Source of the DNA: Sporomusa sphaeroides DSM 2875
GTDB taxonomy: Bacteria; Bacillota; Negativicutes; Sporomusales; Sporomusaceae
DNA length: 32,000 nt
NCBI RefSeq assembly: GCF_001941975.2
Contig: NZ_CP146991.1
Span: 1,504,524 to 1,536,523, forward strand
Direction of reading: 5' to 3'
The notes under the pieces: model-generated
What the model saw: only the letters and a program-made list of their open reading frames with translations
Databases searched by the model: none
Told to the model about the DNA's origin: nothing
Position numbers and translations under genes: made by a program
Part shown: piece by piece, positions 4,492-27,583 of the stretch
Numbering within the stretch: position 1 is the stretch's first letter
Layout of the letters: the number at the start of each line of letters is the position of its first letter

Positions 4492-5288
4492 GCGACAATG
4501 TGGTTTTAGCATTTATATTAACTTCGATAGCCGGTTTGGCAACCGGTGTGGGCGGATTACTGGCTTTTCTTGTAAAACGGAATAATACCAGGCTGCTGTC
4601 TGTCGGGCTGGGCTTTTCGGCCGGGATCATGATTTATGTTTCTTTTGTTGAACTCTTGCGCCAGGCCGAGGGTTCACTGATTGCTCATATGGGCGATCCT
4701 CTGGGCAAGTGGATAACCATTGCCAGCTTCTTTGGCGGCATTTTGCTATCCATTCTGCTGGATAAACTGGTGCCGGAGCACATGAGCTACCATGAGGTCG
4801 ATGTTAATGCAGCGCAGGAAACCCAGAAGCTTTCGGCGGAAAAGCTAAAACGGATGGGGTTGTTTACCGCTTTTGCCATTGCGCTGCACAACTTTCCTGA
4901 AGGCTTGGCTACCTTCATCGGCACTCTGGATGATCCGGCTTTAGGGGTATCTTTGGCGGCCGCTATTGCCATTCACAATATCCCGGAAGGTATGTCTGTG
5001 GCTTTGCCGATCTATTATGCCACAGGCAATACCCTGCAGGCGTTTGGCTATTCGCTGTTATCCGGGCTGGCAGAACCTGTGGGCGGATTACTGGGCTATA
5101 TTGTCTTAAAAACCTTTTTAAATGAAATGGTTCTGGGGGTTACCTTTGCCGCGGTTGCCGGCATTATGGTATATATATCACTGGATGAATTACTGCCAAT
5201 GGCCCGCGAATCAGGTACAGGACACAGTGAAATGTTCGGTCTGGTACTGGGGATGCTGGTTATGGCCATTAGTCTATTATTGTTTTGA
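4488..5288 (+). CDS. zupT: ZIP-family zinc transporter ZupT
   Basis: 266-aa polytopic protein with the paired ZIP motifs HNFPEGLA and HNIPEGMSVA. Its start overlaps the citXG stop (ATGA). Confidence 0.9.
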   Translation: MSDNVVLAFILTSIAGLATGVGGLLAFLVKRNNTRLLSVGLGFSAGIMIYVSFVELLRQAEGSLIAHMGDPLGKWITIASFFGGILLSILLDKLVPEHMSYHEVDVNAAQETQKLSAEKLKRMGLFTAFAIALHNFPEGLATFIGTLDDPALGVSLAAAIAIHNIPEGMSVALPIYYATGNTLQAFGYSLLSGLAEPVGGLLGYIVLKTFLNEMVLGVTFAAVAGIMVYISLDELLPMARESGTGHSEMFGLVLGMLVMAISLLLF

Positions 5289-5312
5289 GTTATCTATTCT
5301 GGTTGACTAAGA

Positions 5313-5347
5313 AAAGCTCGCCGTCATGGCCGGCTTTATTTTTTTTC
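5313..5347 (+). terminator. Rho-independent terminator after zupT
   Basis: Stem aaagctcgcc / ggccggcttt (one C-C mismatch, one G-U pair) with loop gtcat, followed by a run of T. Confidence 0.65.
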
Positions 5348-8210: not shown

Positions 8211-8615
8211 CTAGCGGTCAGTAAGCTGCATTTCGCCAGGGCCACCCTCGGTCCAGATAGTTATAAACACCTGGCCGTTTTCCCGAAAAGCACGCAGCAA
8301 CTCACAATGACGCAGGACAGCAAAGTTTTTTTCGAGCTGTAGCCGTGATATGCTTAATTTTTGCATAATTTGGTCATGTGTAACCGGTCCTTCAGCTTGG
8401 ACGTAATTGTAGAGGTCTTTTTGCAGGTCGGTCAGGCCATCGGTGCCTTCCTGGCCTGCTGCCTTGCGTGCCGATTTAGCACTGTACACGGCAGCTACAT
8501 CACAACTGCGCGGCGGTTCCAGCGCTTCCACATAACAGTCCTCACACAGTGTCTGGCCCCGGTGTTTGACTTCTTCACCAGCCGGAATGGCTGCATTGCA
8601 TTTTTGACAAACCAT
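8211..8615 (-). CDS. Hypothetical zinc-ribbon plus winged-helix-like protein
   Basis: 134 aa. The N-terminal CQKC...CEDC forms a four-Cys zinc ribbon. The C-terminal part (LQKDLYNYVQAEGPVTHDQIMQKLSISRLQLEKNFAVLRHCELL) looks like a wHTH. No named family was recognised. Confidence 0.6.
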   Translation of the reverse strand: MVCQKCNAAIPAGEEVKHRGQTLCEDCYVEALEPPRSCDVAAVYSAKSARKAAGQEGTDGLTDLQKDLYNYVQAEGPVTHDQIMQKLSISRLQLEKNFAVLRHCELLRAFRENGQVFITIWTEGGPGEMQLTDR

Positions 8616-8811: not shown

Positions 8812-8897
8812 TATATAGCATAGGCAAACCTTCTGAAAAGTGGGGACGCAAAGCCACGGGTCTAAGACAATTTGTTAAGATAGCCAGGTTGCAAAGA
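8812..8897 (+). promoter_or_regulatory. c-di-GMP-I (GEMM-I) riboswitch aptamer in the leader of the pgaABCD-like operon
   Basis: The sequence AUAGGCAAACCUUCUGAAAAGUGGGGACGCAAAGCCACGGGUCUAAG...AGAUAGCCAGGUUGC matches the conserved GEMM-I core as remembered from Vc2 (GGCAAACC-stem-GAAA tetraloop-stem-GGGACGCAAAGCC-CGG-CUAA...UAGC-GGGUU-C). That includes the GNRA tetraloop hairpin and a CUAAG tetraloop-receptor-like element. Confidence 0.8.
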
Positions 8898-8926: not shown

Positions 8927-9091
8927 CATCCATTTGAATGTGCTTGTATAGCTAGCTAAGTTCATTTTAATGTTCTAGCATGCTCTCCAATGGAAGGTGC
9001 GGCAAGCTGTCTGTTCAGTATGAACCAATGTAGAAATGATACTAAGAACGTGTTAGGAATGACAAGAATTTATCATATAAGGGAGTTTGAT

Positions 9092-11404
9092 ATGATGCAA
9101 GTTAAGGCAGCTTTGTTAGGGGCAGTGTTGAGTCTTTGCCTCAGCAACACTGCGCAGGCTGCACCTGCTGTGGCGGAAATGCAACCTTCGCTGGCGTTGC
9201 TGAGGCAAAATTATGAAGAACAGCAAGGAAACTGGCAGGTAGCGCAGGATTATGCGGTGGCATTGGCGCGGGATGGACAGTATGGGCTGGCACTGGCTAT
9301 ATTCGAAACGTTGTCAGAATATGCCGGTGTGCAGAAAACCATGTGGTTTGATTATGCTGTTGTTGCTTGCTGGGCCGGGGATTATGCAACTGCCGTTCGG
9401 ATTTATGAAAACCAATTACTGCATATGTCGCAAGCTGTTCCCGATTATGTAAGAGTCAATGTGGCCAGCGCTTATTTTAAACTTGAACGCTATAATGAGG
9501 CATGGCAGTTATACCACCGATTAGTTCAAGACGGAAATCAGAAGGTCAGGCTCTGGGAAGCAGAAAGTCTGGCTTATATGGGTAAAAATGAGGAAGCCGA
9601 TATAGTTTATGAGACCTTGCTGACAGAACAGCCTGACAATCTGGAGGTCTATAGCGGCAAAGCCAGACTGCTGTTTTTGCGCGGTGATGCGATTGGCGCG
9701 GTTGCGGTTATTGATAAAGCCCTGGCGCTGATCGCCCGGAGCAAGGAAAAGTATCCGGTGCAATCACTGTTGTCACTGCGGGGGGAAATGGCGGCACAAT
9801 GTATCAGAAATGAGGAGTACTATCATGGAATAGTACTTCTGCGTCCGACGATTCAGGATGGTTCGGCTACCATTCAAATGCAGTGTGATTATATTTTGGC
9901 GTTATTCCTAAACGGCGATTATAAAACGGCGATTACCGAAGCAGAGCGTCTATGGCCAGATTATCGCAGTATTCCCGTATATGGACGGCGGGCGTTAGCC
10001 GACGCTTATTTGCGGTATAACCTGCCCCAACAAGCTATCGGTGTTTATCGCAGTATCTGGGATGATGAAGAATCACTGTTAAGTGACAAACATAGCTTGG
10101 CCTATTCGTATTTATTGTCAGGGAAAAATAAGAGAACCGGCATGGAATTATACACTGAAATTATTAATACAGGCATTGAGCAAGCCATGAATGTTGCTTA
10201 TGATGCTAATCGTTTCTTTGAAATGGGACGATATGAAGCGGGAAAAAATCTGTATCACACAATCATCAATACGTACCCGGAAAATGTAATAATTCGCCAG
10301 CGTTTTGCAGTTGCTCTTTATAATAGTGGGCTGCTCCGGGAAGCCTGCGAGCAATATGAAGCCTTGGCGGCGTTGCCGGCTGCGCAGCCTGTAGCTGCCG
10401 GCGGTATTATAAATTCAGCGGTTACTGTCGGTGACTATCGTGCTGCCAGAAGCGCGCTCGAAAAGCTAAATGGTGAATATAGCACCAACCCGGTTGTGGC
10501 TCAGGCGGCAGGCCGGTTTGACCGGCGCCTGCAGGGTGATATGTATTCTGCTTTTTCCAGCAGTAGTGATTATAAAGGCAATGAGGTTCGCACCGGTCAA
10601 ATCATTGGTGAACAGCGGCTTGGCGATCGTTTCTTTGCATTGGCCGGAGTGGCTGCCAGCCGGATTTCTGATAATGATGGCGCAGATACCCTGAAAACCT
10701 TTTCTGTCGGTGGACGATATGTTGATATGAAACACACCGCGCAGCTGTGGCTGGATCAAAGCCGCAATCACGGGACACTTAATGGTTACCGTTTTGCTGG
10801 CAGTTACTATTTTGGTGAACAAAGCTGGTTGGATTTTGCCATCAATCGTGTACCGGTAGCTGATGTGCAGGCATTGGCAGACCGGATTATGCTGACAGAA
10901 TACCAGCTAGGGTTTACCCGTCAAATAGGTACCCGGGATATCGCTGGCATTACGGCAACTACTGCGAATTACAGTGACAGCAATCTCCGCAACGGGTTTA
11001 GTCTGGACTGGGAACATATCATGATTAATAATGCACAAAAAACGCTGAGCTGGTTTAGTTATTTTGGCAGGGATAATTATAAAAAGCAGGAGATCAATGG
11101 TGTTGAACCTGTCTATGAAAGTCCGGAGACACGGGAAAGTTATGGGGCAGGCTTGCGCCAGCGTTGGCATTACCCTAAGCATTATTGGGAAACCTCGCTG
11201 GATTTGGGCTGGGGACGCGACCGGCCGGAGCCTATAGATTTTAATCCTGCTGTTCGTTTGGAGTATGGTTGTACATTTTCGCGTAATCAAGCATTAGTGA
11301 TTGGTGCCGGCTACGGCTTACGCACCGGTTACTCAACAAGTACAGGGGGAAAGCCCCAATTTGCTGATCGACAATTTGATGTTAGTTACTATTTCACGTG
11401 GTAG
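9092..11404 (+). CDS. pgaA: PgaA-like PNAG export porin (N-terminal TPR domain plus C-terminal outer-membrane beta-barrel)
   Basis: Starting at ATG 9092 (GGGAG RBS 6 nt upstream) gives the signal peptide MMQVKAALLGAVLSLCLSNTAQA. A TPR-like helical-repeat region follows. The C-terminal ~270 aa has alternating beta-strand character and ends in YYFTW, an OMP-type aromatic terminus. It is the first gene of a pgaB-pgaC-pgaD set. The track start at 8990 adds 34 residues with no RBS. Confidence 0.8.
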   Translation: MMQVKAALLGAVLSLCLSNTAQAAPAVAEMQPSLALLRQNYEEQQGNWQVAQDYAVALARDGQYGLALAIFETLSEYAGVQKTMWFDYAVVACWAGDYATAVRIYENQLLHMSQAVPDYVRVNVASAYFKLERYNEAWQLYHRLVQDGNQKVRLWEAESLAYMGKNEEADIVYETLLTEQPDNLEVYSGKARLLFLRGDAIGAVAVIDKALALIARSKEKYPVQSLLSLRGEMAAQCIRNEEYYHGIVLLRPTIQDGSATIQMQCDYILALFLNGDYKTAITEAERLWPDYRSIPVYGRRALADAYLRYNLPQQAIGVYRSIWDDEESLLSDKHSLAYSYLLSGKNKRTGMELYTEIINTGIEQAMNVAYDANRFFEMGRYEAGKNLYHTIINTYPENVIIRQRFAVALYNSGLLREACEQYEALAALPAAQPVAAGGIINSAVTVGDYRAARSALEKLNGEYSTNPVVAQAAGRFDRRLQGDMYSAFSSSSDYKGNEVRTGQIIGEQRLGDRFFALAGVAASRISDNDGADTLKTFSVGGRYVDMKHTAQLWLDQSRNHGTLNGYRFAGSYYFGEQSWLDFAINRVPVADVQALADRIMLTEYQLGFTRQIGTRDIAGITATTANYSDSNLRNGFSLDWEHIMINNAQKTLSWFSYFGRDNYKKQEINGVEPVYESPETRESYGAGLRQRWHYPKHYWETSLDLGWGRDRPEPIDFNPAVRLEYGCTFSRNQALVIGAGYGLRTGYSTSTGGKPQFADRQFDVSYYFTW

Positions 11405-11422
11405 TTAGGAGGTTTATTTTGG

Positions 11423-13264
11423 ATGAACAGAAAAGTGTGGATATCTCTGTTATGCCTGCTGGGAGTATTATTTTCTGTTAGTTTACCGGCTGCGGCAAAC
11501 GATGTTCTTATTTTATGCTATCACGATGTTGCTGAAAAGCCAGGCAATAATATTTATACTGTAACGCCTGCTGCCTTGAGAAGCCATTTGGATTACTTGA
11601 AGGAAAATGGCTATACACCTATTTCGCTTGAAGACTATATTGCAGCATCAAAGGGGGAAGATAAGCTGCCGGCTAAGCCGGTGATGCTAACCTTTGATGA
11701 CGGGTACCAGTCCTTTTATACAAAAGTATTTCCTTTACTGAAAGAATATAATTATCCGGGGATGATGGCCATTGTAACATCATGGCTGGATTACGCCCCT
11801 GCCGATCTGGGACCGCTGCTGACCTGGCAGCAAATTCGGGAGATGGAATCTTCCGGTTTGATTACTATTGCGTCCCATTCTCATGCGGCACATCGTTTTA
11901 CTGTCACTACACCCCAAGGCGACCGGGGACCGCTATTCGGTAGTTTGCAATATAAAGAGGGAAAATACGAATCGGTTGCCGACTACCGGCAACGGGTAAT
12001 GAGTGATTTTGCGGCAACGCAAGCAGTGTTGACAAGAGAATTGGGACATAAAGCCCAAGCGCTGGTTTGGCCTTTTGGGGCCTACACCCAATTAGCTATT
12101 GAGGATGCTTTCGCGGCAGGCTTCGAAGCCTGCTTTGCCTTGGATGACGGGGTTAACCGTCCCGGAAAACAGGCGCTGAAAGAAGCCAATCGTATCATCA
12201 TAACGAATAACCCGTCCAAGAAAAGGTTTGCTCAATTAGTTAACACAATCGGCAAGGCACCGGTCAAAGCCGCACAACTGGATCTCGACAAAATTTATGA
12301 TCCGGATAGTACCGAACAAACGGAAGAAAATCTAAATTTGGCCATTGACCGCCTCCTGGCTTCCGGTACGAATACCGTTTACCTGCAAGCCTTCAGTGAT
12401 GAGAATGGAACAGGCAATATAGAAAGTGTATATTTTTACACCACGACAGCTCCGGTCAGGGCCGATATTTTTAACCATGTGATTGCACGCTTGCGGGCAG
12501 AAGGCAAATTTACAATTTATGCATGGCTGCCGACACTGGCGGCGCAATGGATTATTGATGAGAATCCGGAAACTGCGGTTGTGGCCTGTGAAGCAAAAAA
12601 TCTGGGCTGGTATCGCCGGGCAACTCCTTTTAGCCCGGAAGTGAGTGACCGCCTGACAGCGATGGTTACTGATCTTGTGAAATACAATGATATCAATGGC
12701 ATACTGTTTCAGGATGATGTATATCTTAATGATTTTGAGGATTTCTCACCCGCAGCCAGGCAAGTATTTAAAACTGAGACAGGTTTGGAGCTTACTCCCG
12801 AATTATTGAAAGCTGACCCGGAATTAAATGACCGCTGGATAAAAATGAAAACTAATGCGCTTACCGGTCTGACGGTAAAACTACAGGCTGCAGCGAAAGA
12901 ATACCGGACTAATCTTGGCAGTGCCCGCAATATTTACCCTATCCTTATTACTGAGCCCGCAGCTGAAACGTGGCTGGGTCAAAATTACGGGCAATATCTG
13001 GATACCTATGATTATACGGTGATTATGGCCTATCCCTATTTAGAAAAAGAATATGAGGATCCGGTTGGCTGGCTGGAAGAATTAGCAACAGCTGCATTAA
13101 AGAATCCGCAGAATGCGCAAAAAACCGTGTTTAAATTGCAAACTTATGATTGGAATAAAAACCGCTGGCTAAGCGCAGATGAAATAAATCGCTTTACCAA
13201 TGCGCTGAAGAAAAAAGGCGCTATTCATATTGCATACTACCCGGAGAATGTTTTTTCGGAATAA
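11423..13264 (+). CDS. pgaB: Poly-beta-1,6-N-acetyl-D-glucosamine N-deacetylase PgaB (CE4 deacetylase plus C-terminal glycoside-hydrolase-like domain)
   Basis: Signal peptide, then CE4 motifs (LCYHDV, LTFDDGYQSFYTKVFPLLKEY, SHSHAAH, WPFG), then a ~300-aa C-terminal domain as in PgaB. AGGAGG RBS. Confidence 0.9.
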   Translation: MNRKVWISLLCLLGVLFSVSLPAAANDVLILCYHDVAEKPGNNIYTVTPAALRSHLDYLKENGYTPISLEDYIAASKGEDKLPAKPVMLTFDDGYQSFYTKVFPLLKEYNYPGMMAIVTSWLDYAPADLGPLLTWQQIREMESSGLITIASHSHAAHRFTVTTPQGDRGPLFGSLQYKEGKYESVADYRQRVMSDFAATQAVLTRELGHKAQALVWPFGAYTQLAIEDAFAAGFEACFALDDGVNRPGKQALKEANRIIITNNPSKKRFAQLVNTIGKAPVKAAQLDLDKIYDPDSTEQTEENLNLAIDRLLASGTNTVYLQAFSDENGTGNIESVYFYTTTAPVRADIFNHVIARLRAEGKFTIYAWLPTLAAQWIIDENPETAVVACEAKNLGWYRRATPFSPEVSDRLTAMVTDLVKYNDINGILFQDDVYLNDFEDFSPAARQVFKTETGLELTPELLKADPELNDRWIKMKTNALTGLTVKLQAAAKEYRTNLGSARNIYPILITEPAAETWLGQNYGQYLDTYDYTVIMAYPYLEKEYEDPVGWLEELATAALKNPQNAQKTVFKLQTYDWNKNRWLSADEINRFTNALKKKGAIHIAYYPENVFSE

Positions 13265-13287
13265 TTTAAACCAGGGGGTGAAACAGG

Positions 13288-14532
13288 GTGGAAACATATA
13301 GCTGGCTTGAGTTTTTAGAGAACTATGTTTTCTATTACCCACTGGCAATGAGTATTGTCTGGATGATGGGCGCATCGTATTTTTATTTGCGGCGGGAGCG
13401 AGGAGAAAAACAGGTACCGGAGTTAAAAGAATATCCGCTGGTATCGGTGTTGATTCCTGCCCGCAATGAAGAAGACGCTATCCGCAGCACGGTCGAAGCC
13501 GTACTTACTTCTGAATATCCTAATTTTGAAATTATCGTTCTTGATGATGCAAGTACAGATTCTACCGCAGCTATTATCCAGGAAATTGAAGCTAACGAGG
13601 AACGAGTACGGGTGTTATTGTTAAATAAAAATGTAGGTAAACCGTCGGCGCTGCGTTATGGGGCGTTGGCCAGCAGAGGGGATATCCTGCTTTGCATTGA
13701 TGCGGATGCGTATCTTGATCCATGGGCGATGCACTGGATGGTCAGTCATTTTAATGGTCCCCGCGTGGGGGCGGTTACCGGTAATCCCCGGGTGAGAAAC
13801 CGTACATCCCTGTTGGCGAAAATTCAGGTGGGTGAATACTCCTCAATCATCGGGATGATTAAACGCACCCAACGGATTTTAGGCAAAGTGTTGACTGTAT
13901 CTGGCGTAATTGCTGCTTTCCGTAAGCAAGCTATTTTTGACGCCGGTTTATGGGATACCGACATGATTACTGATGATATTAATATTACGTGGAAACTGGA
14001 AAAACGATTCTGGGATATCCGTTATGAACCGAATGCGTTGTGTTGGATTTTAGTGCCAGAGACGGTCAGCGGCTTGTGGCGGCAGAGAGTCAGATGGGCA
14101 CAAGGCGGTGTAGAGGTTGTCCGCCGGCACCGCGATATTTGGAAAAGCTGGAAACAACGCCGTTTATGGCCGGTATATCTAGAGTATGTGTTATCCATCA
14201 TCTGGTCATATGTTTTTATTTTACTGGGGATTGTCGGACTTGTTAACTTAACTTATCCAACCGGCTTGCCGGAGGTGCGTATTTTTCCGGAATGGAAAGG
14301 TTCGATGCTTGCTTTTATATGTCTGCTGCAGTTTCTCATCGGTTTAACTATTGACCAAAAATATGAGAAATCTATTCCGGGCTATTTGTTTTGGGTTATT
14401 TGGTATCCCTTTGCCTATTGGCTATTGACGGCTTTGGCTACCGTATATGCAGCACCACGGGCATTATTCCGAAAAATGGGACAGCCAGCTGTCTGGACCA
14501 GTCCTGACAGGGGGATATTCACCAAATTATAA
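13288..14532 (+). CDS. pgaC: Poly-beta-1,6-N-acetyl-D-glucosamine synthase PgaC (GT2)
   Basis: GT2 hallmarks are present: VLIPARNEE, VLDDASTD, IDADA, GNPRVRN and the processive-synthase motif QRVRWAQG. TM helices flank the catalytic domain. GTG start with a GGGGGTG RBS. Confidence 0.9.
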   Translation: METYSWLEFLENYVFYYPLAMSIVWMMGASYFYLRRERGEKQVPELKEYPLVSVLIPARNEEDAIRSTVEAVLTSEYPNFEIIVLDDASTDSTAAIIQEIEANEERVRVLLLNKNVGKPSALRYGALASRGDILLCIDADAYLDPWAMHWMVSHFNGPRVGAVTGNPRVRNRTSLLAKIQVGEYSSIIGMIKRTQRILGKVLTVSGVIAAFRKQAIFDAGLWDTDMITDDINITWKLEKRFWDIRYEPNALCWILVPETVSGLWRQRVRWAQGGVEVVRRHRDIWKSWKQRRLWPVYLEYVLSIIWSYVFILLGIVGLVNLTYPTGLPEVRIFPEWKGSMLAFICLLQFLIGLTIDQKYEKSIPGYLFWVIWYPFAYWLLTALATVYAAPRALFRKMGQPAVWTSPDRGIFTKL

Positions 14533-14560
14533 TGCGCATTCATGCGAAAGGAGGGAGCTT

Positions 14561-15277
14561 TTGAACACCAGTGACAATTTGTACCGGATTTTAGGCAGCA
14601 AGCTTATGGCTATTATTGCAGGTCTTCTATTAGTGGTCATTGTGCTGTATCTTAGCTATGTCTTTGGGTACATTCAGGCCCCTGAACAGTTGTTAATCAA
14701 GAATATAGCAGTATTCTTTGTTATAATAAGTGCAATTGTAATTATTACCGGGTTGCTTTTTTATAACATTACACAAATGATTTTCTTAACTAAAGCTCGA
14801 GAAACTGAAGAAGCTGCTGCGTTGGAAACCCAACTGGTAATTAATCAACCGATTTTGCAGAAGCCGATTATCCGCGGCTTAGAGGTATTGGCTTCGGCTT
14901 CGATCTGGGTTGTTTTTTTATACTTTTTTCAAACATTCCTTTCGGCGGTTGTTTGGATCTTAGGTGGACGCTCCTTGTACGCCAAGCTTTTTTCACCGGA
15001 CATTATTGAAGGCACAGAAAATATGTTGTTTCTGGTTTTTGTCTTTGCATTAGCGATGTTTTTGGTCATGCTGGCTTGGGCTAACTGGAATTACCGGAGG
15101 TATGGGCGTTTGGAGCGTCGTAAACCGCGTCCGCCCATACCGTCCAATATTATTGCCAGCTATTATGATATTCCGGAACAAATGGTGTTTACTGTCCAAG
15201 ATATGAAGATTGCAAGAATCAGTCCGTTAGATAGCGGGTTAAATATGGAAGTAGTAAAAAAACTGGTCAAAAATTAG
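14561..15277 (+). CDS. pgaD: PgaD-like PNAG synthesis accessory membrane protein
   Basis: It lies immediately after pgaC and has several TM helices. The PgaD-like juxtamembrane motif is LAWANWNYRRYGRLERRK. The start was reassigned to TTG 14561 (AAAGGAGGG RBS 7-8 nt upstream), because the track start at 14447 would overlap the last 86 nt of pgaC. Confidence 0.65.
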   Translation: MNTSDNLYRILGSKLMAIIAGLLLVVIVLYLSYVFGYIQAPEQLLIKNIAVFFVIISAIVIITGLLFYNITQMIFLTKARETEEAAALETQLVINQPILQKPIIRGLEVLASASIWVVFLYFFQTFLSAVVWILGGRSLYAKLFSPDIIEGTENMLFLVFVFALAMFLVMLAWANWNYRRYGRLERRKPRPPIPSNIIASYYDIPEQMVFTVQDMKIARISPLDSGLNMEVVKKLVKN

Positions 15278-23875: not shown

Positions 23876-23952
23876 GGTGGCTGTGGTGAAGCGGTTAACA
23901 CGCCGGATTGTGGCTCCGGTATTCGAGGGTTCGATCCCCTTCAGTCACCCCA
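23876..23952 (+). tRNA. tRNA-His (GTG)
   Basis: Cloverleaf folded by hand. There is an 8-bp acceptor stem including the His-specific G-1:C73 pair, anticodon stem CCGGA/TCCGG with loop TTGTGGC, T-arm GAGGG-TTCGATC-CCCTT, and an encoded CCA. Confidence 0.9.
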
Positions 23953-23966
23953 ATAATCTTGTTAGT

Positions 23967-24042
23967 AGGGGCGTAGCCAAGTCGGTAAGGCAACGGACTT
24001 TGACTCCGTCATGCGTTGGTTCGAGTCCAGCCGCCCCTGCCA
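23967..24042 (+). tRNA. tRNA-Gln (TTG)
   Basis: Acceptor AGGGGCG/CGCCCCT, anticodon stem ACGGA/TCCGT with loop CTTTGAC, a T-loop GGTTCGAGTCC, and an encoded CCA. Confidence 0.9.
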
Positions 24043-24139
24043 TAAGCAGAGAACCAGGTTTTTAGGAACGATAGTGACACGAAAACCTGTGTGAATCGCT
24101 TAGTTCCGAGCGTTAGTAAGGAACTTATTTAAAGATGTC

Positions 24140-24215
24140 GACCCACTAGCTCAGTCGGTAGAGCACCTGACTTTTAATCAGGGTGTCCCGCGTTCGAGTC
24201 GCGGGTGGGTCACCA
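24140..24215 (+). tRNA. tRNA-Lys (TTT)
   Basis: Acceptor GACCCAC/GTGGGTC, D-arm TAGCTCAGTCGGTAGAGCA, anticodon stem CCTGA/TCAGG with loop CTTTTAA, a T-loop GTTCGAGTC, and an encoded CCA. Confidence 0.9.
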
Positions 24216-24219
24216 TAAT

Positions 24220-24302
24220 GCGGGAGTGGCGGAATTGGCAGACGCACCAGACTTAGGATCTGGCGGGTGACCGTGGGGGTTCAAGTCCCTTCTCCCGCAC
24301 CA
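24220..24302 (+). tRNA. tRNA-Leu (TAG), class II with long variable arm
   Basis: Acceptor GCGGGAG/CTCCCGC, anticodon stem CCAGA/TCTGG with loop CTTAGGA, a long variable arm, a T-loop GGTTCAAGTCC, and an encoded CCA. Confidence 0.9.
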
Positions 24303-25531: not shown

Positions 25532-25555
25532 GAATACATATGTATTACATACAGC

Positions 25556-25586
25556 AGAGAAGAGTACCATTACGGTACCCTTCTCT
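25556..25586 (-). terminator. Hairpin between convergent genes, probable terminator of the rSAM-peptide operon
   Basis: 13-position stem agagaagagtacc / ggtacccttctct (one A-C mismatch) with a 5-nt loop, starting 6 nt after the peptide stop codon. The trailing sequence is not strongly U-rich on either strand. A separate 14-bp perfect palindrome aatacatatgtatt lies at 25533-25546. Confidence 0.45.
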
Positions 25587-25592
25587 CTATAC

Positions 25593-25997
25593 TTATAACG
25601 GGTTGCAGGGGCGGTGAGCAGGCCGGCACGGACGCGGGGAACATTGCTGAGGACTGCACTGCCTTGGACTACATTGTTGAGGGCTGCATTGCTGCGGACT
25701 ACATTGCTGTGGTCTGCATTGTTGCGGATTGCACTGTGATGGTCTGCACTGCCTTGGGCTGCATTGCCATGGCCTGCATTGTTGCTGCGGAAAACAAAAA
25801 TGCGGACGGCATTGGCGGGGAGAACAAGGCGCCCAGGAGGGGCGGCAGCCGATTTGCTGATTTGGTCGACAGGGGTTCCAAGCAGGATTGCAGCTTATAC
25901 GTTCAGTATTTTCGTCTTCTTCAAATTCGTCATCCATATCTTCCATTTCCGGGGTTTCCCATTTCGGGTCCATATATTTGTCATCATACATTTTCAT
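25593..25997 (-). CDS. Cys-repeat RiPP precursor candidate (134 aa: acidic leader residues 1-35, C-x-P repeat core residues 36-134)
   Basis: The ATG overlaps the stop of the upstream radical SAM gene (AGATGAAA) and GGAGG lies 5-6 nt upstream. The core has 18 Cys, each followed by x-Pro, with 11 consecutive Cys (C74-C124) spaced exactly 5 residues apart (CSPQQ, CSPRQ, CRPQQ...). Leader coordinates are 25893-25997 and core coordinates 25596-25892. Confidence 0.8.
   Translation of the reverse strand: MKMYDDKYMDPKWETPEMEDMDDEFEEDENTERISCNPAWNPCRPNQQIGCRPSWAPCSPRQCRPHFCFPQQQCRPWQCSPRQCRPSQCNPQQCRPQQCSPQQCSPQQCSPRQCSPQQCSPRPCRPAHRPCNPL
25626..25826 (-). repeat. Imperfect 15-nt (5-codon) tandem repeat inside the precursor CDS
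   Basis: The plus strand reads ggNctgcaNtgNNNN repeatedly (for example ggactgcactgcctt, ggactacattgttga, gggctgcattgctgc). This encodes CxPxQ units from C58 to C124. The units differ at synonymous and non-synonymous sites, so the repeat is not a recent perfect duplication. Confidence 0.85.
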
Positions 25998-27232
25998 CTA
26001 TCCTCCCAGTTTCCTGTGTATGGGTTATAGGAGCAGTCGGCAGGGGCGGCTTGCCAGGACTTCTTTGGGTCCTGGCCTTGGGCTAACGGGCGGCAGTCGG
26101 CGCAGGCAAAGCGGTATTCGCAATCCTGACATTTGCTGATACAGTCCTTTGTGGTTTGCCAGCAGGTGGTCAGCGGTTGGCCGGTAAGTATGGCAGCAAG
26201 TGATGTGTTCAATATGTTTCCACAAACTTGATCACGGGCAAAGATGCAGGGAATGACATCGCCGGTAGACGTTATGGCCAGCCGGCCTGCTAAACAGCTA
26301 TGGAAATGCTGCGCTTTGCCAAATGTTTCAGGGTCGGTAAAGAAGGGGGGCTTAATGGCCGGTTTGCTGTAGGCTTGGGGCAGCAGTTCCAGATTATCAC
26401 CGCGTCCGGTAGGTCGGATGACATCGGGTGGCACAGGCTCAACCCCAAGGTCGGTCAAAAGTTTCACAATATTTTCTGCTTCTTGTTCATTGGCTTTCAT
26501 AATAATAGAAGCAATACGCAGCGGCAGCCCCTTGGCCAGAATTTTTTGAATGGCAGACATAGTTTTGTCAAAACTGCCGGGATGCTGGGTAACCCTATCA
26601 TGAACTGCGGAATTGTCGGCATAGATAGTGGTGGCAATGCTGACAGAATGCTGTTTAAAAAAGTCAATACAGTCATCATCCACAAGTGTGGCATTGGTAA
26701 ATATCTCAACCAATTCATAGTTTTCCTCGCGGGCCTTGATGATTAATTCTCGCCACCTTGGGTACAACAACGGTTCGCCGCCAATAAGCTGAATGCCGTA
26801 GGCGCCTGCCAGCCGGGCTTCGGTAATTAATTCAAGCCAGCGGGTATGTGGCATACAGCCTGCCGCCGTGTGCGGACTGCTGGCCGAATAGCAATGTAAG
26901 CAGCGGTTGTTGCAGGTTGATGTAAGCTCAAGCCAGATATACTCAAGTGTAGGCTGGTACGGCTGGATGGGGCATGTTCGTTTTCCGGCGGGAAGTTCGT
27001 TGTATATTGCGCCAAGCCCTTTGGTTGTCAATTTATCAAGAAATGATAAGTACCGCTTGCCGTCAACTGAGTTGACATCCATTATTTCTTCTAATGCCGA
27101 GCTTTCGCACGCCTTGAGCAGTTCTACTGCTCCCCGGTTGATAGAATACACTCGGCCTGAGGAAAAGTCGTAGATAGCACCGCGTGCTTTCCCTTCTATC
27201 AAGACACTTTCGGCTTTCAAATGGTAATACAA
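25994..27232 (-). CDS. Radical SAM/SPASM-domain peptide maturase with N-terminal RRE (PqqD-like) domain
   Basis: The radical SAM cluster motif is CNNRCLHC (CxxxCxxC) in LELTSTCNNRCLHCY. GGEPLL is also present. The SPASM signature is C-x10-G-x4-C (CLAGRLAITSTGDVIPC), then CQDCEYRFACADC, then a terminal Cys (PADCSYNPY). The first ~95 aa (…GAIYDFSSGRVYSINRGAVELLKACE…) resemble a PqqD-like peptide-recognition element. TTG start 7 nt after GGAGG. Confidence 0.9.
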   Translation of the reverse strand: MYYHLKAESVLIEGKARGAIYDFSSGRVYSINRGAVELLKACESSALEEIMDVNSVDGKRYLSFLDKLTTKGLGAIYNELPAGKRTCPIQPYQPTLEYIWLELTSTCNNRCLHCYSASSPHTAAGCMPHTRWLELITEARLAGAYGIQLIGGEPLLYPRWRELIIKAREENYELVEIFTNATLVDDDCIDFFKQHSVSIATTIYADNSAVHDRVTQHPGSFDKTMSAIQKILAKGLPLRIASIIMKANEQEAENIVKLLTDLGVEPVPPDVIRPTGRGDNLELLPQAYSKPAIKPPFFTDPETFGKAQHFHSCLAGRLAITSTGDVIPCIFARDQVCGNILNTSLAAILTGQPLTTCWQTTKDCISKCQDCEYRFACADCRPLAQGQDPKKSWQAAPADCSYNPYTGNWEDR

Positions 27233-27292
27233 CCGGACGCCTCCTTTAGCGTAGCTTTGCTTATCCTGAGTGGGCTTGTTCAGGATAATTTG

Positions 27293-27340
27293 CGGCTTGT
27301 GTTGTCACCACAGGTTTGGCACAAGCCGTGTTTTTGTGTT
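27293..27340 (+). other. Terminator-like hairpin oriented on the plus strand, just upstream of (antisense side of) the rSAM start
   Basis: 9-bp GC-rich stem cggcttgtg / cacaagccg enclosing an 18-nt loop, followed on the plus strand by tgtttttgtgttt. On the minus strand the same hairpin, together with a second 9-bp hairpin at 27261-27288 (ttatcctga / tcaggataa), would sit in the 5' UTR of the rSAM gene. Confidence 0.5.
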
Positions 27341-27456
27341 TATACATAATATGCAAGCCGATAGATAGGTGCTAGTTTCAATTGTAAAATATACAGCATG
27401 CTGCAAGCATTTTATTGGTGGGAATAGGATTGTTTAACAGAATAGATTGATTAATG

Positions 27457-27485
27457 TTGACAGATAATAATTTATGGTTTATAAT
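27457..27485 (+). promoter_or_regulatory. Consensus SigA promoter of tRNA-Gly (TTGACA-17 nt-TATAAT)
   Basis: Perfect -35 TTGACA (27457-27462), a 17-nt spacer and perfect -10 TATAAT (27480-27485), 24 nt upstream of the tRNA. Confidence 0.7.
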
Positions 27486-27508: not shown

Positions 27509-27583
27509 GCGGAAGTAGCTCAGCGGTAGAGCATCGCCTTGCCAAGGCGAGGGTCGCGAGTTCGAATCTCGTTTTCCGCTCCA
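27509..27583 (+). tRNA. tRNA-Gly (GCC)
   Basis: Acceptor GCGGAAG/TTTCCGC-type stem, D-arm TAGCTCAGCGGTAGAGCA, anticodon stem TCGCC/GGCGA with loop TTGCCAA, a T-loop GTTCGAATC, and an encoded CCA. Confidence 0.9.

Follow-up and report, generated by a model that had tools for sequence, protein, structure and literature searches.

What does a bacterium do with a peptide in which a cysteine is followed, two residues on, by a proline 18 times over, and which enzyme acts on it? The question is raised by a 32,000-nucleotide stretch of Sporomusa sphaeroides DSM 2875 (contig NZ_CP146991.1, positions 1,504,524 to 1,536,523; hereafter the window, meaning the whole stretch), in which an open reading frame (ORF) at 25593-25997 on the minus strand encodes an acidic leader followed by a core of Cys-x-Pro (C-x-P) repeats. 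Immediately upstream on the same strand lies a gene for a radical S-adenosylmethionine (rSAM) enzyme with a SPASM domain and an N-terminal domain resembling the recognition element (RRE) of enzymes that modify peptides that are ribosomally synthesized and then modified after translation (RiPPs). A first-pass annotation, made from the letters of the DNA, had proposed a precursor-like peptide partnered with this enzyme. Our analysis indicates that the 25593-25997 product is probably indeed the substrate of the RRE-rSAM-SPASM enzyme, and that the pair, widespread and unannotated, represents a variation not described so far on the theme of Cys-repeat peptides modified by rSAM enzymes. The argument turns on the following features.

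25593-25997, minus strand: precursor ORF, 134 amino acids; stop codon TAA at 25593-25595
25893..25997, minus strand: acidic leader, residues 1-35, with 15 Asp/Glu against 4 Lys/Arg
25596..25892, minus strand: core, residues 36-134, with 18 C-x-P units
25994..27232, minus strand: RRE, radical SAM and SPASM enzyme, 412 amino acids; TTG start, with AAAGGAGG before it

Conservation of the enzyme-peptide pair

Homologues of the enzyme were collected at one genome per species, which gave 79 loci with identities ranging from 75% down to 29%, and about 640 kb from these loci were scanned in six frames for segments with at least four C-x-P. At 65 of the 79 loci a C-x-P-rich ORF is found on the strand of the enzyme gene, usually directly downstream or upstream of it. 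Every segment that passes the threshold lies on that strand and within about 2.4 kb of the enzyme, except for the rSAM ORF of locus L004 itself, and nearly all of these segments begin with a leader-like N-terminus. The loci belong to Negativicutes (Sporomusa, Pelosinus, Lucifera, Dendrosporobacter, Propionispora), Clostridia (Ruminiclostridium, Lutispora, Lachnospiraceae, Oscillospiraceae, Peptococcaceae, Thermacetogeniaceae) and Synergistaceae, together with one Bacteroidetes metagenome-assembled genome (MAG), several Patescibacteria and one Woesearchaeota MAG.

The two partners are even found in a single protein. In a Candidatus Angelobacter MAG (L078, 242-1300), the rSAM enzyme ends in a tail of 12 C-x-P units preceded by an Asp-rich linker; this natural fusion has no RRE and its SPASM region is shortened. 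Conserved adjacency and the fusion thus support the pairing first proposed from the window, and the partnership is shown across bacterial and some archaeal lineages.

Distant members of the family vary this arrangement. In the Woesearchaeota MAG (L063, 1501-3927), four precursors lie in tandem upstream of the rSAM gene, each with a Tat-like signal, RRDFLRKAG (RRDFLRKAGTAVVVGLGG), and at least one of them comprises two leader-core modules ('KKVT' motif). The relative P0148 (L082, 27-1529) has a double-glycine-type leader, LDKVSGG (EKLTDESLDKVSGG), and its core, IGCQPSWSPC, matches the unit with which the core opens in several Sporomusa orthologues, such as that of L001; the gene is followed by one for a full-length enzyme relative (31% identity, E = 3e-63). 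As for the Thermacetogeniaceae and Peptococcaceae loci L073 and L076 (2613-3288 and 5212-6946), the pair is flanked by a conserved 202-residue protein that has no Pfam match, and also by a PAS-HisKA_3 kinase and a LuxR-type response regulator. No conserved transporter or protease was found among the neighbours of the distant loci.

Coding status of the precursor gene

The precursor ORF is a real gene, translationally coupled to the enzyme gene upstream of it. The signals that accompany it are the following.

26002..26007, minus strand: Shine-Dalgarno sequence GGGAGG for the precursor, within the 3' end of the rSAM gene
25549..25592, minus strand: hairpin resembling a terminator, immediately behind the stop codon, which the precursor gene shares with the DUF2238 gene converging on it; no clear U-tract

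The first ATG of the precursor overlaps the stop codon of the rSAM ORF (ATGA), and GGGAGG lies 4 nt ahead of this ATG and 10 nt ahead of that of codon 3. The true start may be Met3 instead (nt 25991), which leaves a gap of 2 nt to the rSAM stop: it is the start called in a 97%-identical metagenome copy, annotated as a gene in L080, and orthologues begin there with MSDDKY. The hairpin after the stop codon has a minimum free energy of -27.7 kcal/mol (z = -4.8).

A peptide so repetitive might be thought to be an artefact of periodicity, that is, an ORF that happens to cross an untranslated DNA repeat. Most orthologues are indeed not called as genes in public annotation. The window peptide has two relatives among 5.8 billion proteins, and a profile built from three sequences gave 41 matches in 1.84 billion cluster representatives, of which about 10 are true precursors, the remainder being unrelated Cys/Pro-rich low-complexity proteins. 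Against this, more than 60 loci retain the reading frame together with C-x-P and the leader motif, despite complete turnover of the units and differing codons, and the ORF possesses a Shine-Dalgarno sequence and is translationally coupled. Compared with the copy in L080, 11 codons differ without a single indel, seven of them synonymously and four non-synonymously (S59F, R82S, R95K, P123L), each of the latter at an x position, which supports selection on the protein pattern as the first-pass annotation had supposed.

When the core was shuffled 200,000 times, the number of C-x-P never exceeded 12, compared with 18 observed. Tandem Repeats Finder reports arrays with a period of 15 nt, whose matches reach only 69-82%, and between units TGC and TGT, all four Pro codons, and CAG and CAA interchange. 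Because of this low match and this codon variation, the repeat must be old at the DNA level and kept at the protein level, in line with the divergence of the units that had been noticed at first reading. We consider the untranslated-repeat explanation already effectively refuted.

What is conserved in the precursors

Within the precursor, three further segments can be delineated.

25629..25826, minus strand: period-5 block from C58 to P123, made of C-x-P-x-Q units, one of them of 6 residues
25944..25967, minus strand: leader motif PKWETPEM, matching the family consensus PKW[ED]xPE[MIL]xxW[DE]; a putative contact of the RRE, to which it would bind
25596..25616, minus strand: C-terminus HRPCNPL, conserved in the Sporomusa clade

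The leader, MKMYDDKYMDPKWETPEMEDMDDEFEEDENTERIS, is followed by a core that runs from CNPAWNPC to HRPCNPL. The 99 residues of the core include 18 Cys, 22 Pro, 20 Gln, 12 Arg and 2 His, with no Asp, Glu or Lys at all, and the successive Cys are separated by 7, 8, 7, 5, 5 and 6 residues, then by 5 residues ten times, and finally by 7, so that 12 of the 17 spacings are of 5. Translation of the minus strand from 25997 to 25593 bears out every residue count of the first-pass annotation for leader and core, as well as its list of Cys positions and the x-Pro that follows each of the 18. Its statement that Gln almost always precedes the next Cys in the period-5 block also holds, the units ending in F67 and P123 being the ones that depart from it. 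The position of the leader/core junction is inferred; in orthologues the region reads ER[VI]xxx[IV]GC, and 'IGC' is found again within cores.

Which of these features matter to the family was assessed in 72 precursors with 828 core Cys. Pro occupies the +2 position after 814 of them (98%), whereas at every other position the commonest residue stays at or below 28%, and x at +1 may be Arg, Trp, Asn, Ser, Phe, Tyr, Pro or Gln. The precursors contain 4-28 C-x-P units, and the Cys period ranges from 3 to 10, with examples of 3 (CSPCNPCRP), 4 (CNPN), 5 (C[WFY]PRQ) and 6 (CWPRQQ). The proposal that C-x-P is the selected feature is therefore supported. The Gln at +4, which the first reading had considered conserved, is confined to Negativicutes, as a habit of Sporomusa and Pelosinus, and drops to 22% family-wide, and the period of 5, real enough in the window block, is one spacing among those that the family uses. 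Leaders are lineage-specific as well: those of Negativicutes follow the consensus PKW[ED]xPE[MIL]xxW[DE], in which W, P and E never vary among 31 sequences, whereas other lineages have ELTKVT-like or LEMECLT-like leaders.

The pairing of an acidic leader with a cationic core behaves in the same way. In most Negativicutes the leader has a net charge of -5 to -18 and the core mostly one of +5 to +14 (minimum +2), but in Clostridia, Synergistaceae, Patescibacteria and archaea the net charge of the core goes from neutral down to -13. The charge contrast seen in the window thus stands for most Negativicutes, and masking of a cationic core cannot be the principle of the family, since cores elsewhere are neutral or acidic. 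C-x-P is thus the family rule, and Gln(+4), a fixed 5-residue period and the pairing of charges belong to particular lineages.

The abundance of Cys also invites comparison with metallothioneins. The peptide might bind metal through free thiols, the rSAM enzyme being incidental or serving to prepare the scaffold: the core is 18% Cys and has two His, and Tat-type leaders such as those of the archaeal precursors would suit the export of a pre-folded or metal-loaded product. However, pairs of the type CC, CxC or CxxC are missing from the window core, whose minimum Cys spacing is 5 (some period-3 relatives do contain C-x-P-C), no metal-homeostasis genes are adjacent to the operon in the window, and the link between enzyme and peptide is conserved across phyla, to the point of fusion. 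We regard a metallothionein-like function as very unlikely.

The partner enzyme and its possible chemistry

The enzyme is recognized by Pfam as Radical_SAM (64.5 bits) and SPASM (33 bits), and the following parts can be distinguished in it.

26948..27232, minus strand: RRE-like domain at the N-terminus (residues 1-95), modelled as strands and then three helices (predicted local distance difference test, pLDDT, ~90)
26891..26914, minus strand: CxxxCxxC cluster motif (C107, C111, C114), invariant in 75 family members
26033..26296, minus strand: SPASM region with seven invariant Cys (C313, C329, C368, C371, C377, C380, C400) and the C-terminal signature C.Y.P..G.W

The AlphaFold2 model of the enzyme (pLDDT 80) starts with strands and three helices, continues with the SAM barrel and ends with the SPASM domain, which suggests that an RRE-like domain is present at the N-terminus. 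In a profile search against solved structures the best matches were SkfB (E = 5e-24), SuiB (2e-11) and CteB (7e-11), the alignment to CteB beginning at residue 20 of the enzyme; Foldseek placed SkfB (E = 5e-14), CteB and SuiB at the top, with full-length alignments to CteB, and the anaerobic sulfatase-maturating enzyme (anSME) and PqqE lower. Identity to solved structures is 13-19%, that to SkfB being 19%. A sequence search of the PDB with the SPASM region alone returned chance matches only (LAMTOR2, dehydrogenases). The locus thus combines what is generally expected of an rSAM/SPASM RiPP system, namely a CxxxCxxC motif with a 7-Cys SPASM domain, a putative RRE and a short, co-oriented precursor gene.

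How might such an enzyme treat such a peptide? The acidic leader, with its PKW[ED]xPE motif, would dock on the N-terminal RRE, and the enzyme would then proceed along the core, each C-x-P unit representing one putative modification site. As only Cys and Pro(+2) are invariant, x being free and units going down to three residues, the chemistry must be local to C-x-P or to Cys itself. The most likely reaction would bond the Cys sulfur to a carbon of the neighbouring x or Pro, giving one small ring per unit. We favour a thioether, although tentatively and with rather less confidence than we have in the enzyme-substrate relationship, because the nearest enzymes, SkfB and CteB, form thioethers, because of the 7-Cys SPASM pattern and because of the precedent of freyrasin. 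With this pattern, auxiliary cluster I of CteB keeps a site open to the thiolate of the substrate. Freyrasin, a ranthipeptide with six CX3D motifs made by PapA/PapB, illustrates thioether formation repeat by repeat.

The main alternative is that the Cys residues are themselves converted, as by anSME, an enzyme that uses eight Cys for its auxiliary clusters. Hydrogen abstraction from C-beta at each Cys would yield a thioaldehyde and then formylglycine, or a 5-thiooxazole trapped by the backbone as with SbtM, so that the outcome would be a poly-aldehyde or a poly-thiooxazole, metal-binding peptide. With C-x-P as the sole invariant and a 3-residue period tolerated, modification of Cys itself fits the precursors. 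The sulfatase consensus CXPXR and the thiooxazole route of SbtM have been described (PMC13638132), and the sulfatase motif C/S-x-P-x-R is the only experimentally known rSAM/SPASM substrate motif to share Cys-x-Pro with the present family (PMC13638132). The enzyme is also a clear structural relative of anSME (Foldseek E ~5e-10, TM score ~0.5). Nevertheless, anSME ranks below SkfB, CteB and SuiB both by sequence profile and by fold, it has no RRE domain, and the family of the window enzyme has seven invariant SPASM Cys, with no eighth that is invariant across the 75 members compared. The anSME model TIGR03942 is not among the 25 best NCBIfam matches of the window enzyme, which places it under 51 bits for a cut-off of 349, and it gives distant family members 49-61 bits. 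None of the 18 window units has Arg at +4, and where the substrate of anSME is a sulfatase, that of the window enzyme would be a leader-bearing repeat peptide with no sulfatase domain. On balance, we find an anSME-like conversion unlikely, and retain thioether formation within C-x-P as the preferred chemistry.

Relation to known systems and annotation status

Several characterized or predicted systems resemble the pair in part. Close to it in organization are the ranthipeptides of Clostridia, SCIFF/ScfB and CteA/CteB, which also consist of a two-gene unit with a short Cys-rich precursor and an RRE-rSAM-SPASM maturase; like the pair described here, such a unit is widespread and vertically inherited within a Firmicutes lineage and mostly has neither a transporter nor a protease. 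However, SCIFF has six Cys, no Pro rule and no repeats, unlike the 4-28 C-x-P units found here, and TIGR03974, the model of the SCIFF maturase, does not appear in the 25 best matches of the window enzyme and gives the distant enzyme of L052 63 bits for a cut-off of 425. SkfB is the closest solved enzyme and forms a Cys-to-C-alpha thioether, but, beyond the low identity, the window enzyme stays far under the cut-off of the SkfB model (TIGR04403, 57 bits for 300). SkfA, the substrate of SkfB, carries one thioether and one disulfide and has no repeats, and the skf cluster carries export and immunity genes.

Other resemblances concern the repeats. In freyrasin, one rSAM enzyme modifies all copies of a short Cys repeat, and the C-x-P-x-Q unit of the window has the same C-X3-acceptor spacing, but the window core has no Asp or Glu and its +4 residue is not conserved family-wide; the PapB model NF047865 is likewise absent from the 25 best matches and gives distant members 45-63 bits for a cut-off of 340. 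CefA/CefB, the 'Cys-every-fifth' system (NF038107), links an rSAM/SPASM maturase to a peptide in which each fifth residue is Cys, the period of the main block in the window peptide, whereas the spacing in the family described here goes from 3 to 10; the model gives the window enzyme less than 51 bits and that of L052 60.6, with a cut-off of 600. Finally, the ACGX-repeat peptides and their enzyme rSAM_ACGX (TIGR04340) also associate a short Cys tandem repeat with an rSAM/SPASM enzyme, the chemistry being uncharacterized, but the repeat is A-C-G-x rather than C-x-P and the score is 63 bits for 400.

More generally, no NCBIfam family comes near its cut-off with the window enzyme, the best reaching 101 bits for 500, and four distant enzymes exceed no NCBIfam cut-off. 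Among models of thioether maturases, StsB gives 75 bits for 625 and AlbA 64 for 850, and those of ScfB, PapB and QhpD are not among the 25 best matches. The window peptide has no NCBIfam match at E <= 1, which includes the peptide model of the CefA/CefB family, and no Pfam match; seven further precursors have neither. Named homologues of the precursor are all 'hypothetical protein', and orthologous enzymes (P0013, P0015, P0023, P0066) are inconsistently called PqqA peptide cyclase/PqqE, GTP 3',8-cyclase or subtilosin maturase AlbA, with MoaA also among the automatic names of the family. As no family model exists, these names look like mis-annotations. Full-text literature searches, which included literal core strings, yielded no description of this peptide-enzyme family; the phrase 'Cys-every-fifth' had 0 occurrences, and a query for CefA/CefB was swamped by papers on cephalosporins.

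Genomic setting and possible roles in Sporomusaceae

About 40 loci of Negativicutes have the pair divergent from a tRNA-Gly gene and from tig-clpP-clpX, and in Sporomusa a gene for a DUF2238 membrane protein converges on it. The window shows this arrangement.

27986: tig
29298: clpP
29916: clpX

Enzymes from different genera are 57-63% identical and trigger factors 58-68%, values close enough to indicate that the pair has long been inherited vertically. A perfect TTGACA-17-TATAAT promoter at 27457-27485 (plus strand) serves the divergent tRNA-Gly(GCC) gene at 27509-27583 (plus strand), and a cluster of tRNA genes (His, Gln, Lys, Leu; 23877-24302, plus strand) is located on the other side of the operon.

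This setting bears on the model put forward at first reading, in which the product is a secreted cationic antimicrobial whose acidic leader neutralizes the core until it is cleaved. The charges of most Negativicutes precursors speak for it, as do the export leaders of distant members (GG-type in P0148, Tat-like in L063). In contrast, no transporter, protease or immunity gene adjoins the operon in the approximately 40 Negativicutes loci, the chromosomal site is fixed and vertically inherited, unlike that of bacteriocin clusters, and in other lineages the cores are acidic or neutral. The window leader has no GG/GA motif and no transporter is found nearby in the window; the early remark that a cleavage motif of this kind is missing holds for the clade of the window, but not for P0148. 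The antimicrobial role appears distinctly improbable. Because the two-gene operon is vertically inherited at one site, with no adjacent transporter or protease, the Sporomusaceae product is probably not a classical exported bacteriocin.

Upstream of the operon, two elements may relate to its expression.

27343..27376, minus strand: promoter-like element, ACTAGCAC, 14 nt, GCATATTATGTA
27233..27340, minus strand: 5' leader RNA of 108 nt with two predicted hairpins (-32.1 kcal/mol, z = -3.2)

The 12-mer GCATATTATGTA, at 27343-27354 (minus strand) in the window, is found exactly, once per locus and on the operon strand in 33 loci of several genera (within L001-L053). It lies 30-55 nt before the first gene of the operon and thus precedes the peptide gene in L040, where that gene comes first; L029 is an exception, the 12-mer being located between the enzyme gene and a degenerate peptide gene. 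Its core, CATATTATG, is a 9-bp palindrome, and a conserved GCACA(C) occurs about 16-17 nt upstream of the 12-mer. The CATA-type -10 of the element resembles the Bacillus consensus for sigma-K, sigma-E and sigma-G. A sigma-A-like reading (CTAACA, 18 nt, TATTAT) is also conceivable, and the likeness to sporulation promoters is a lead, not a result. As for the 5' leader, it varies between species; compared with most Sporomusa orthologues it is an insertion, of which L005 and L046 share only a part, and no Rfam family matches it.

If the lead is followed, the product might be a structural, Cys-rich component associated with the spore, cross-linked by the rSAM enzyme in the mother cell or forespore, with no need for an exporter. 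This possibility concerns function and is compatible with the enzyme-substrate reading. An operon with neither transporter nor protease, vertically inherited in spore-forming Sporomusaceae, would suit it, as would the CATA-type -10 of the element GCACA(C), about 16-17 nt, CATATTATG, with its likeness to the Bacillus sigma-K, sigma-E and sigma-G consensus sequences. In addition, three loci of Selenomonadales/Veillonellaceae type (L036, L041, L042) keep the rSAM gene without the peptide and without the 12-mer. However, the family also occurs in non-sporulating Patescibacteria, Bacteroidetes and Woesearchaeota, there with Tat-like or GG-type export leaders, and the promoter fits the sigma-A-like reading too. 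A spore component is thus an unlikely, though not negligible, function, and, like the metallothionein-like reading, it does not explain the enzyme partnership. The product may act inside the cell, or in association with the spore, in Sporomusaceae, and other lineages may export theirs.

Several points weigh against the view that the peptide is the substrate of this enzyme and is modified at each C-x-P. The chemistry is extrapolated from relatives as distant as the identities given above imply (13-19%), and C-x-P recalls the anSME motif CxPxR, not any sacti- or ranthipeptide motif. We know of no direct precedent for a thioether to x or Pro inside C-x-P, the nearest being the thiomorpholine of enteropeptin. 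Moreover, six loci (L003, L039, L025, L036, L041, L042) keep the enzyme while the core is lost or degraded. In Sporomusa silvacetica (L003, ~5240-5330) and a soil MAG (L039), the rSAM gene and the leader (MSDDQYKSPKWETPEMSEWDT) are kept and the C-x-P core has gone, a remnant that looks like a precursor pseudogene. Since some lineages retain the enzyme without the core, the pair must be dispensable, or the enzyme has other substrates.

It is tempting to speculate further that the C-x-P repeats define a new RiPP class in which the rSAM enzyme puts an undescribed modification on each unit, for example a ring closed by a thioether from Cys to Pro or to x, or a heterocycle derived from Cys. In Sporomusaceae the system would have been domesticated, its product being a polymer that is inherited vertically, is not exported, may be under sporulation control and has a role in structure or in metal or redox processes, not as an antibiotic. 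Taken as a whole, this scenario is something of a long shot.

Two observations made elsewhere in the window are reported for completeness. A c-di-GMP-I riboswitch (8813-8896, plus strand; 72 bits, E = 1.6e-12) is located directly upstream of a pgaA/B/C/D-like operon (8990-15277) that encodes a TPR protein with a PgaA barrel, a deacetylase with GHL13, a GT2 glycosyltransferase and PgaD; its placement suggests cyclic di-GMP control of an exopolysaccharide of the poly-N-acetylglucosamine type in a diderm Firmicute. The ORF at 8211-8615, which also has 134 codons for amino acids, is unrelated to the precursor and not a paralogue of it.

Implications

Radical SAM/SPASM maturases are a main source of novel peptide chemistry; so far, every new substrate motif has brought a new cross-link. 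The Cys-x-Pro motif is minimal, and it is kept at 98% of sites from Negativicutes to Patescibacteria and archaea. The pair forms a clean two-gene unit that could be co-expressed directly, and nature itself offers a fusion of enzyme and substrate. Automatic annotation gives the enzymes such names as PqqE, AlbA or MoaA and either calls the peptides hypothetical or misses them, and no curated model covers the pair. As for the organisms themselves, Sporomusaceae are acetogens used in microbial electrosynthesis, in which the operon behaves as a core gene pair beside tig-clpPX. It raises in them the same question as SCIFF does in Clostridia, namely what purpose a conserved, non-exported, modified peptide serves.

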